Positions 18,084 to 18,850 of a DNA stretch of 22,489 nucleotides are shown here, one piece after another. The translations under genes and the position numbers were made by a program. The notes below the pieces were generated by a model. That model saw nothing but the letters and a program-made list of their open reading frames with translations. It did not search any database and was not told the origin of the DNA. This DNA comes from a virus (Duplodnaviria; Heunggongvirae; Uroviricota; Caudoviricetes), in the IMG/VR virus record IMGVR_UViG_2778261450_000009, positions 1 through 22,489 of that record; one strand, written 5' to 3'. Position 1 is the stretch's first letter; every line of letters begins with the position of its first letter.

Positions 18084-18272
18084 ATGAAAGAAAAACAACA
18101 GAACATAACACATAAAAAAGTAAGAGTGTTGCTAACCATTGAAAATGGTGAAGTAATTTACCAAAAACATCTGTTGGATAATGAATTCGTTGGCTGCATG
18201 GATACATTTCTGTGGATGGCAAAAAGAGCTGGCTACACGATTATTCCACCAGCAAAGGAGCAAACATTATGA
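18084..18272 (+). CDS. Hypothetical small protein (62 aa)
   Basis: GGGAG RBS; its stop overlaps the start of the next gene (ATGA). Confidence 0.5.
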   Translation: MKEKQQNITHKKVRVLLTIENGEVIYQKHLLDNEFVGCMDTFLWMAKRAGYTIIPPAKEQTL

Positions 18273-18850
18273 ATCATTCAGATTTCCGACCAGAAGTTAC
18301 GCCACATGGCATAAAAATTGGCAATACAACCATTAATTTTGTTGATGCCGTACAGCGACTTAATGATGGTGAATACGACAATCCATACTGGCACGGCTTA
18401 AGAATCATGCAATGTATTGCTGAAGCCGATGATGCCGGATTCCTGGGAAGATTTTCAGTCGATATGAAGGTTGCTCAATGGCGCTGGCTGTATGTGGCAA
18501 CGTTTATCAGTGAAGAGGAAAACAAGAACGGCACCATTGATATCCCTAACGATAACGGAACCACAGATCACGCAGTTATTTATAAGGGAAAGCATGGTTG
18601 TATAAGTATATACCCGGGGCCACTTCGCATTGCCCTGCAAAACCATGTTGAATGGGGATTTATTGAAAAATATGGCGAAGCTGAAGGCATGGGGAGAGTT
18701 CTGTTTCTCTATCAAAAAATGCTCATCGCAGATCCTGATAATGGTTTCATTCTCTCTGCTATGGGGCGCGAAGGGCTTGAACTCCTTCTGGATGAAATGA
18801 TTAACGACCTGAATACTCATGGTATGCCAGAAGCGCCAGTGACACATTAA
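18269..18850 (+). CDS. Hypothetical protein (193 aa), translationally coupled to the 62-aa gene
   Basis: ATG at 18269 with AAGGAG RBS. The ORF-track version starts upstream at 18212. No recognised motif. Confidence 0.6.
   Translation: MNHSDFRPEVTPHGIKIGNTTINFVDAVQRLNDGEYDNPYWHGLRIMQCIAEADDAGFLGRFSVDMKVAQWRWLYVATFISEEENKNGTIDIPNDNGTTDHAVIYKGKHGCISIYPGPLRIALQNHVEWGFIEKYGEAEGMGRVLFLYQKMLIADPDNGFILSAMGREGLELLLDEMINDLNTHGMPEAPVTH

Follow-up and report, generated by a model that had tools for sequence, protein, structure and literature searches.

We examined three consecutive small genes, named here p37, p62, and p193 for the number of residues in their products, in a 22,489-nucleotide (nt) stretch of DNA from a tailed virus of the class Caudoviricetes (IMG/VR record IMGVR_UViG_2778261450_000009, positions 1 to 22,489; the whole stretch is referred to here as the window). 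The reading that we favor, to which we give about an even chance, is that all three belong to the leftward early (pL) operon of a phiP27-like lambdoid prophage as ordinary accessory genes and do not form a self-contained two-gene system. Judging from its sequence, the window is a phiP27-like lambdoid prophage of the Shiga-toxin (Stx) type. The region carrying the genes is 95.7% identical to the L08-to-L05 interval of phiP27, and p62 and p193 thus correspond to L07 and L06, respectively.

All three genes are on the plus strand. The first member of this conserved trio, p37 (positions 17966 to 18079; ATG at 17966, stop codon at 18077 to 18079), encodes a basic protein of 37 residues (isoelectric point [pI], 9.8). 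It is followed by p62 (18084 to 18272; ATG at 18084, TGA at 18270 to 18272), which encodes a basic protein of 62 residues (pI, 8.9), and by p193 (18269 to 18850; ATG at 18269, TAA at 18848 to 18850), which encodes an acidic protein of 193 residues (pI, 4.9). Each start codon is preceded, at a distance of 8 nt, by a Shine-Dalgarno (SD) sequence, i.e., GGAG at 17954 to 17957 for p37, GGGAG at 18071 to 18075 for p62, and AAGGAG at 18255 to 18260 for p193. Given that the p37 stop codon lies 4 nt before the p62 start, the p62 SD sequence falls within the last p37 codons; an in-frame TAA (18081 to 18083) stands immediately before the p62 ATG. The p193 SD sequence likewise lies within the p62 coding sequence, at a junction (18255 to 18272) that ends in the ATGA (18269 to 18272) shared by the p62 stop and the p193 start. 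On the basis of this spacing, we regard the three genes as one tightly packed, translationally coupled string. The coordinates and SD sequences bear out the overlapping pair of genes described in a first-pass annotation of this DNA. The ATGA overlap is conserved within the phiP27 clade; in its place, the Stx1/Stx2 clade has a 5-nt spacer between the p62 and p193 homologues.

The sequence comparisons favor ATG 18269 as the correct start of p193. The start used in the phiP27 record (GTG 18212, giving 212 residues) is unlikely to be right, because all N termini of the family align at the methionine encoded at 18269 and because the frame in the Stx1/Stx2 clade opens just four codons upstream of it. 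The annotation pipeline PGAP, in a genome with 100% identity across this stretch, called p62 and p193 at identical coordinates and left p37 uncalled.

To assess the reality of the open reading frames (ORFs), we calculated the ratio of nonsynonymous to synonymous substitution rates (dN/dS) between the window genes and their copies in Stx1 and Stx2 phages and PhiR49_2. Synonymous sites were near saturation (proportion of synonymous differences, 0.6 to 0.8). The dN/dS ratios were 0.07 to 0.08 for p37 (against the Stx1 phage and PhiR49_2 copies), 0.18 to 0.20 for p62, and 0.15 to 0.20 for p193. Homologues reach Citrobacter, Klebsiella, Salmonella, and others, and p37 is conserved as far as Citrobacter and Phytobacter and is present in nearly all related loci. 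Judged by these comparisons, p37, p62, and p193 are real genes under strong purifying selection and not chance ORFs; what had been listed as a further possible 37-residue ORF with a GGAG ribosome-binding site can be counted as a gene. At the 3' end of p193 (18770 to 18830, plus strand), nucleotides are nearly invariant among 62 unique sequences (variability, 0.005 to 0.04, compared with approximately 0.1 elsewhere). This segment coincides with the end of similarity to Stx1 phages and is thus probably a mosaic recombination junction.

The position of the trio is that of early-left accessory genes. On the plus strand, the immunity repressor gene cI (15649 to 16338) is followed by its intrinsic terminator (16350 to 16366) and, just downstream, by a predicted pL/OL region (16402 to 16464), which consists of a sigma-70-like promoter (16402 to 16430; TTGACA, 17 nt, TAATAT; 10 of 12 in the promoter scan) and operator-like repeats. 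The repeats ATAACTTGAT and ATCAAGT that follow this promoter also occur in the cro-cI intergenic region (15514 to 15609). Next come a helix-turn-helix gene (L10), an 82-residue ORF, L08, and the trio, and then two small membrane ORFs, an SPFH lipoprotein gene, genes for DUF5406 and DUF4222 proteins, xis (20884 to 21120), and int (21176 to 22489). The trio thus has the same strand as this series and lies between cI and xis-int, downstream of the predicted pL/OL, and all annotated phages that we inspected (Stx1/Stx2 phages, PhiR49_2, Klebsiella KPP5665-2, CharmingMan, and phi467) had p193 at this cI-to-int position. An equivalent position in other phages and mosaic presence or absence, both expected of lambdoid early-left genes, were found. 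The layout is that of a lambdoid leftward early operon, in agreement with the early-left location given in the first-pass annotation. A consensus scan found no plus-strand promoter between 17710 and 19039, and the sequence directly preceding the trio showed neither a promoter-like site nor a terminator or Rfam element. In the 78-nt leader that separates L08 from p37, no RNA element was detected (Rfam scan; fold z-score, -0.42). Within this leader, the motif ATCGCCGGGGATT (17922 to 17934, plus strand) is invariant and is kept across clades whose flanking coding sequences have diverged.

The interval had also been described, by eye, as richer in A+T than the replication module, and the G+C contents agree (41.6% for the p62/p193 pair and 50.8% for the replication genes). 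The whole early-left operon (43.2%) and cI (42.3%) are close to the pair, so the A+T richness is regional and not specific to the pair. The conclusion drawn from it, that the pair is acquired cargo, is therefore weak, the entire immunity and early-left region sharing this composition.

Both larger proteins belong to established phage protein families. p62 is a member of phrog_340 (E value, 1.3e-24; residues 2 to 61 of 62) and p193 a member of phrog_1515 (E value, 8.9e-92; residues 1 to 193 of 193), and p37 had no PHROG or Pfam match. When 1.84 billion representatives were searched exhaustively with a profile, 126 relatives of p193 emerged, nearly all of 190 to 230 residues; every relative whose source was checked came from Enterobacterales and was named "hypothetical" there. 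With 604 clusters at 90% identity, the family of p62 is the larger of the two; it consists of stand-alone proteins of 60 to 70 residues and spans Escherichia, Klebsiella, Salmonella, Raoultella, and Citrobacter. The trio was present in 161 of 5,426 complete E. coli genomes (approximately 3%) and was chromosomal in every case. A literature search found no paper that mentions the trio genes, their accessions, PHROG identifiers, or peptides, and the supplements of three accessory-gene or antidefense screens contained no match to the trio.

We classified 176 fetched related loci with profiles for seven gene families. Across these loci, the families follow a fixed order, i.e., p37, phrog_1737 (approximately 120 residues), p62, a ParE-like gene (72 residues), phrog_1886 (approximately 140 residues), p193, and phrog_3007, and each member is independently present or absent. 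The compact p37-p62-p193 form seen in the window accounted for 136 loci, comprising E. coli prophages of the phiP27-like and Stx1/Stx2 types. Citrobacter, Klebsiella phages, and phage CharmingMan carried the full array, with two genes intervening between the p62 and p193 homologues. Nine loci carried p62 without p193, and four carried p193 without p62 (Yersinia, Phytobacter, Providencia, and one other Enterobacterales genome). p62 and p193 are not inherited as a unit, whereas a dedicated two-component system would be; judging from their distribution, each is a separable member of a variable cassette array. p62 always adjoins a phrog_1737-type domain: in loci without the trio, phrog_1737 lies directly upstream with overlapping starts, and in trio loci, p193 lies directly downstream. 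Given this constant adjacency, p62 may act as a small partner of the phrog_1737-type domain.

The array contains further genes outside the window. In Citrobacter and Klebsiella relatives (loci L007, 3346 to 3564, and L180, 4185 to 4403), the end of the p62 homologue is overlapped by the gene for the 72-residue ParE-like protein (PF24732, E value, 7.8e-19; phrog_1525), which is followed by the 140-residue phrog_1886 gene; the latter overlaps the p193 start. In several relatives (L007, 4569 to 5147; L010, 5267 to 5854; L012, 4538 to 5071), p193 is followed by phrog_3007 (approximately 190 residues). The PHROGs label of this family, "RusA-like resolvase," looks doubtful because the family also weakly matches the DNA polymerase processivity-factor family phrog_947 (E value, 2e-4).

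The AlphaFold2 model of p193 was confident (predicted local distance difference test score, 89.5; predicted template modeling score, 0.85) and showed a mixture of beta-meander and helical elements arranged as an N-terminal domain, a C-terminal domain (approximately residues 106 to 184), and a disordered C-terminal tail. The protein has no hydrophobic or transmembrane segment. Searches of the PDB and BFVD with the model returned no structural match to an enzyme or any other fold, and neither single-clade nor broad profiles found a match among PDB sequences. A broad p193 profile detected phrog_1737 proteins of sister phages (independent E value, 1.7e-6), hhalign aligned p193 residues 106 to 184 with phrog_1737 (probability, 82.6%; E value, 9.7e-6), and one p193 family member matched phrog_1737 directly. 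The C-terminal domain of p193 is thus a probable, though not certain, distant relative of phrog_1737. The tail comprises the last nine residues and was modeled with low confidence. It has the pattern G-[ML]-P-x-x-P-V-x-H, is conserved in relatives as distant as those of Salmonella and Plesiomonas, and is typical of a docking peptide. The structure prediction and remote-homology search proposed in the first-pass annotation therefore provided a confident p193 model and a probable relationship with phrog_1737 but neither a structural match nor a known function.

For p62, a beta-hairpin followed by a helix was predicted. Twelve of 16 p62 family members matched the C-terminal region of the phrog_4792 "antirepressor" family (best E value, 1.3e-6). 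p62 itself had no Pfam ORF6N match and thus lacks the N-terminal ORF6N/KilA-N domain of antirepressors, and the p62 domain was not found in the ORF6N proteins of the fetched loci. Profile-profile comparison detected no relationship between p193 and p62. Scans of p37, p62, and p193 against Pfam, NCBIfam, and PADLOC gave no usable match, so the earlier impression that neither product of the pair has a recognizable motif holds. A match of p193 to DUF1980_C (E value, 0.008, under the family cutoff) was shared by 0 of 58 other family members and was dismissed as chance, and the Pfam tags PF17345 and PF27490, precomputed for some homologues, were not reproduced by our Pfam scan. A clear homology to a known phage early protein, which would have spoken for a different function, was not found among the lambda early-left proteins: none of them resembled any of the trio (15 sequences searched; every E value, >0.2).

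Taken together, the products of the trio are most likely cytoplasmic binding-type accessory proteins made early after induction. Upon repressor inactivation or infection, the trio would be transcribed on a long pL transcript running toward xis-int, and its translation would be coupled by the 4-nt gaps and overlaps and by the location of SD sequences within the gene ahead. The products would be small soluble cytoplasmic proteins that have no recognizable catalytic motifs and that act by binding rather than enzymatically, associating with other proteins early in lytic development and thereby serving host takeover, counterdefense, or developmental modulation. In such a scheme, p62 may pair physically with the phrog_1737-type domain, i.e., the C-terminal half of p193, and p193 may dock onto a partner through its conserved disordered tail. 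A more ambitious proposal is that p193 and the related phrog_1737 domain, with p62 as a small subunit, represent an undescribed protein fold and a family whose members are early effectors in temperate phages of Enterobacterales, possibly acting in counterdefense or host takeover and docking by the tail; we consider this conceivable but rather unlikely.

Several observations weigh against this account of the trio. The pL promoter is a consensus match only, as are the operators, and transcription of the trio from pL is for this reason a prediction. Because a minus-strand ORF (17114 to 17413) separates pL from the trio, the account presumes read-through. The absence of a structural relative of p193 refers to the PDB and BFVD only, and the conserved polar residues of the broad p193 family (D37, R72, R120, E128, and Y148) could equally form an active site. 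The relationship with phrog_1737 is modest and one-directional, given that a reverse search with the phrog_1737 profile recovered no p193; it falls short of certainty for this reason. The adjacency of p62 and phrog_1737-type domains may simply reflect a gene order conserved within a small number of related lineages, given that the loci lack phylogenetic independence. Finally, no experiment or expression data on these genes were found in the literature.

The first-pass annotation had likened the pair, as a small protein followed by a larger partner, to toxin/antitoxin (TA) or sensor/effector pairs. Taken at full strength, this would make p62 and p193 a dedicated two-component prophage cargo for a TA, abortive-infection, or sensor/effector defense function, with one product being toxic or effector and the other neutralizing or sensing. 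Beyond the gene sizes and the coupling, almost nothing speaks for it. Neither adjacency nor co-occurrence of p62 and p193 is obligate in either direction, and the ATGA overlap is a feature of the phiP27 clade alone. None of the toxin, antitoxin, or defense models in PADLOC, Pfam, or NCBIfam matched either protein (in PADLOC-DB v2, the three trio proteins matched 0 families at an E value of ≤0.1), and neither showed the homology or fold similarity to a toxin or antitoxin superfamily that is expected of a type II TA component. Furthermore, a prophage defense or addiction module needs to be expressed in the lysogen. The two genes lie in a repressor-controlled early operon and had no promoter of their own detectable by the consensus scan, and with predicted control by pL, expression in the lysogen is not indicated. 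We consider this explanation very improbable. A related idea is that p62 is an antitoxin-like orphan of a lost 72-residue ParE-like partner, perhaps neutralizing ParE-type toxins of the host, with p193 as an unrelated neighbor. It draws on the Citrobacter and Klebsiella loci, where the p62 homologue is followed by the overlapping PF24732 ParE-like toxin-domain gene, on the adjacency of the two genes in 27 of the 29 census loci that contain the ParE-like gene, and on the short acidic or polar C-terminal tails of p62 homologues. The association fails in both directions, however: two loci (L005 and L008) carry the ParE-like gene but not p62, and p62 stands without the ParE-like gene in the 136 trio loci and approximately 8 others. 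A jackhmmer search seeded with the L007 ParE-like protein found no copy in the window, which belongs to the p37-p62-p193 class. This makes the orphan idea very improbable.

A different function, in DNA transactions, is suggested only by context. p193, alone or with p62 and p37, could be a recombination or replication factor occupying the exo/bet/gam slot of a phage with no Rec module. The early-left operon contains no recognizable recombination genes (no exo, bet, or gam), and the window contains 13 Chi sites (GCTGGTGG) compared with 0.76 expected, a combination that fits the lambdoid class described as "no Rec module, high Chi" (PMC12315714); in relatives, moreover, p193 is often followed by phrog_3007, with its RusA-like or processivity-factor-like PHROGs assignments. 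The same study, however, notes that such phages do not universally share any gene of unknown function in their early-left regions (PMC12315714), and p193 is present in just approximately 3% of complete E. coli genomes. The protein is acidic, has no nuclease, annealing, or DNA-binding signature, and has no fold match to recombination proteins. A role in DNA transactions is thus improbable, and ordinary accessory genes of the pL operon remain the explanation that we prefer.

Of the 13 Chi sites, 10 are on the minus strand. One of these minus-strand sites (18246 to 18253) falls where p62 encodes P-P-A, a short distance ahead of the p193 SD sequence, and is kept in 43 of 62 unique sequences. Selection for this site was considered and could not be demonstrated, the Stx1/Stx2 clade being without it.

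Other features of the window are recorded here for completeness. The minus-strand ORF between pL and the trio encodes 99 residues (it is represented by a shorter L09 in phiP27), is accompanied by a minus-strand promoter-like site (17462 to 17434), and may be a separately expressed moron within the plus-strand operon. A domain (phrog_4587/phrog_5451) is common to the N-terminal part of L10 (residues 33 to 82; gene at 16454 to 16945) and the C-terminal part of L08 (residues 68 to 115; gene at 17522 to 17887), both on the plus strand; in sister prophages, it forms a stand-alone 66-residue gene just upstream of p37. Downstream of the trio, a 35-residue hydrophobic ORF (18896 to 19003) precedes a gene for a 62-residue membrane protein (19027 to 19215, plus strand; phrog_1130), which overlaps by ATGA the start of the SPFH/Band-7 lipoprotein gene (19212 to 20039, plus strand; Pfam E value, 6e-31). 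The latter two genes form a second coupled small-plus-large pair directly downstream of the trio region. In the rightward early region, adjoining Ant-like genes, we detected matches at Rfam gathering scores to the C4 antisense RNA (13811 to 13897, minus strand; 80.9 bits) and the Hfq-binding RNA isrK (13922 to 13998, minus strand; 56.9 bits). This cluster points to an antisense-controlled antirepressor module of the P1/P7 type.

The analysis removes a tempting TA or defense annotation as unsupported, corrects gene boundaries, and extends the pair to a trio by adding p37, a gene missed by annotation pipelines. It places the trio within a variable cassette array common to temperate phages of Escherichia, Citrobacter, Klebsiella, Salmonella, and their relatives, as typical uncharacterized early-operon content of Stx-type prophages. 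With its confident model, which has no structural match, and its conserved tail, p193 is a reasonable but not exceptional experimental target. If it proved to be a true counterdefense or host-takeover factor, it would represent a new fold, and the conserved C-terminal tail would offer a handle for pulldown assays.

Compared with known systems, p62 and p193 resemble type II TA operons such as ParDE in being two small overlapping genes and in having relatives that carry a gene with a ParE-like domain beside the p62 homologue. They differ from such operons in that they are not conserved as a unit and have no TA homology, no promoter of their own in the consensus scan, and no ParE-like gene in the window. 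ORF6N-type phage "antirepressors" (phrog_4792 and phrog_2379) align with p62 over their C-terminal region (positions 191 to 239 of 268). As p62 is without their defining N-terminal domain, it is best described as a stand-alone copy of the C-terminal module. In modular regulators of the KilA-N/ORF6N/Bro type, the C-terminal position is usually taken by interaction domains. The small ORFs of the lambda exo-xis region (orf60a, orf61, orf63, ea8.5, and ea22) share no detectable sequence similarity with the trio but are likewise small, tightly packed, and nonuniversal and likewise belong to a pL operon, where they sit between xis-int and the immunity region; the general view is that they are nonessential accessory genes. 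Membership in phrog_340 and phrog_1515 is full length and high scoring, and since these families have no assigned function, it names the proteins but does not explain them; their function was given as unknown in the first-pass annotation, and the genes have been catalogued as such since the phiP27 genome. The phiP27 record differs in that L06 starts at the upstream GTG (212 residues), L07 starts five codons earlier, p37 is unannotated, and both annotated genes are listed as "unknown." L07 and L06 of phiP27 are orthologues of p62 and p193 (97% and 91% amino acid identity, respectively), and gene order, ATGA overlap, and the neighboring genes L08 and L05 are all shared.
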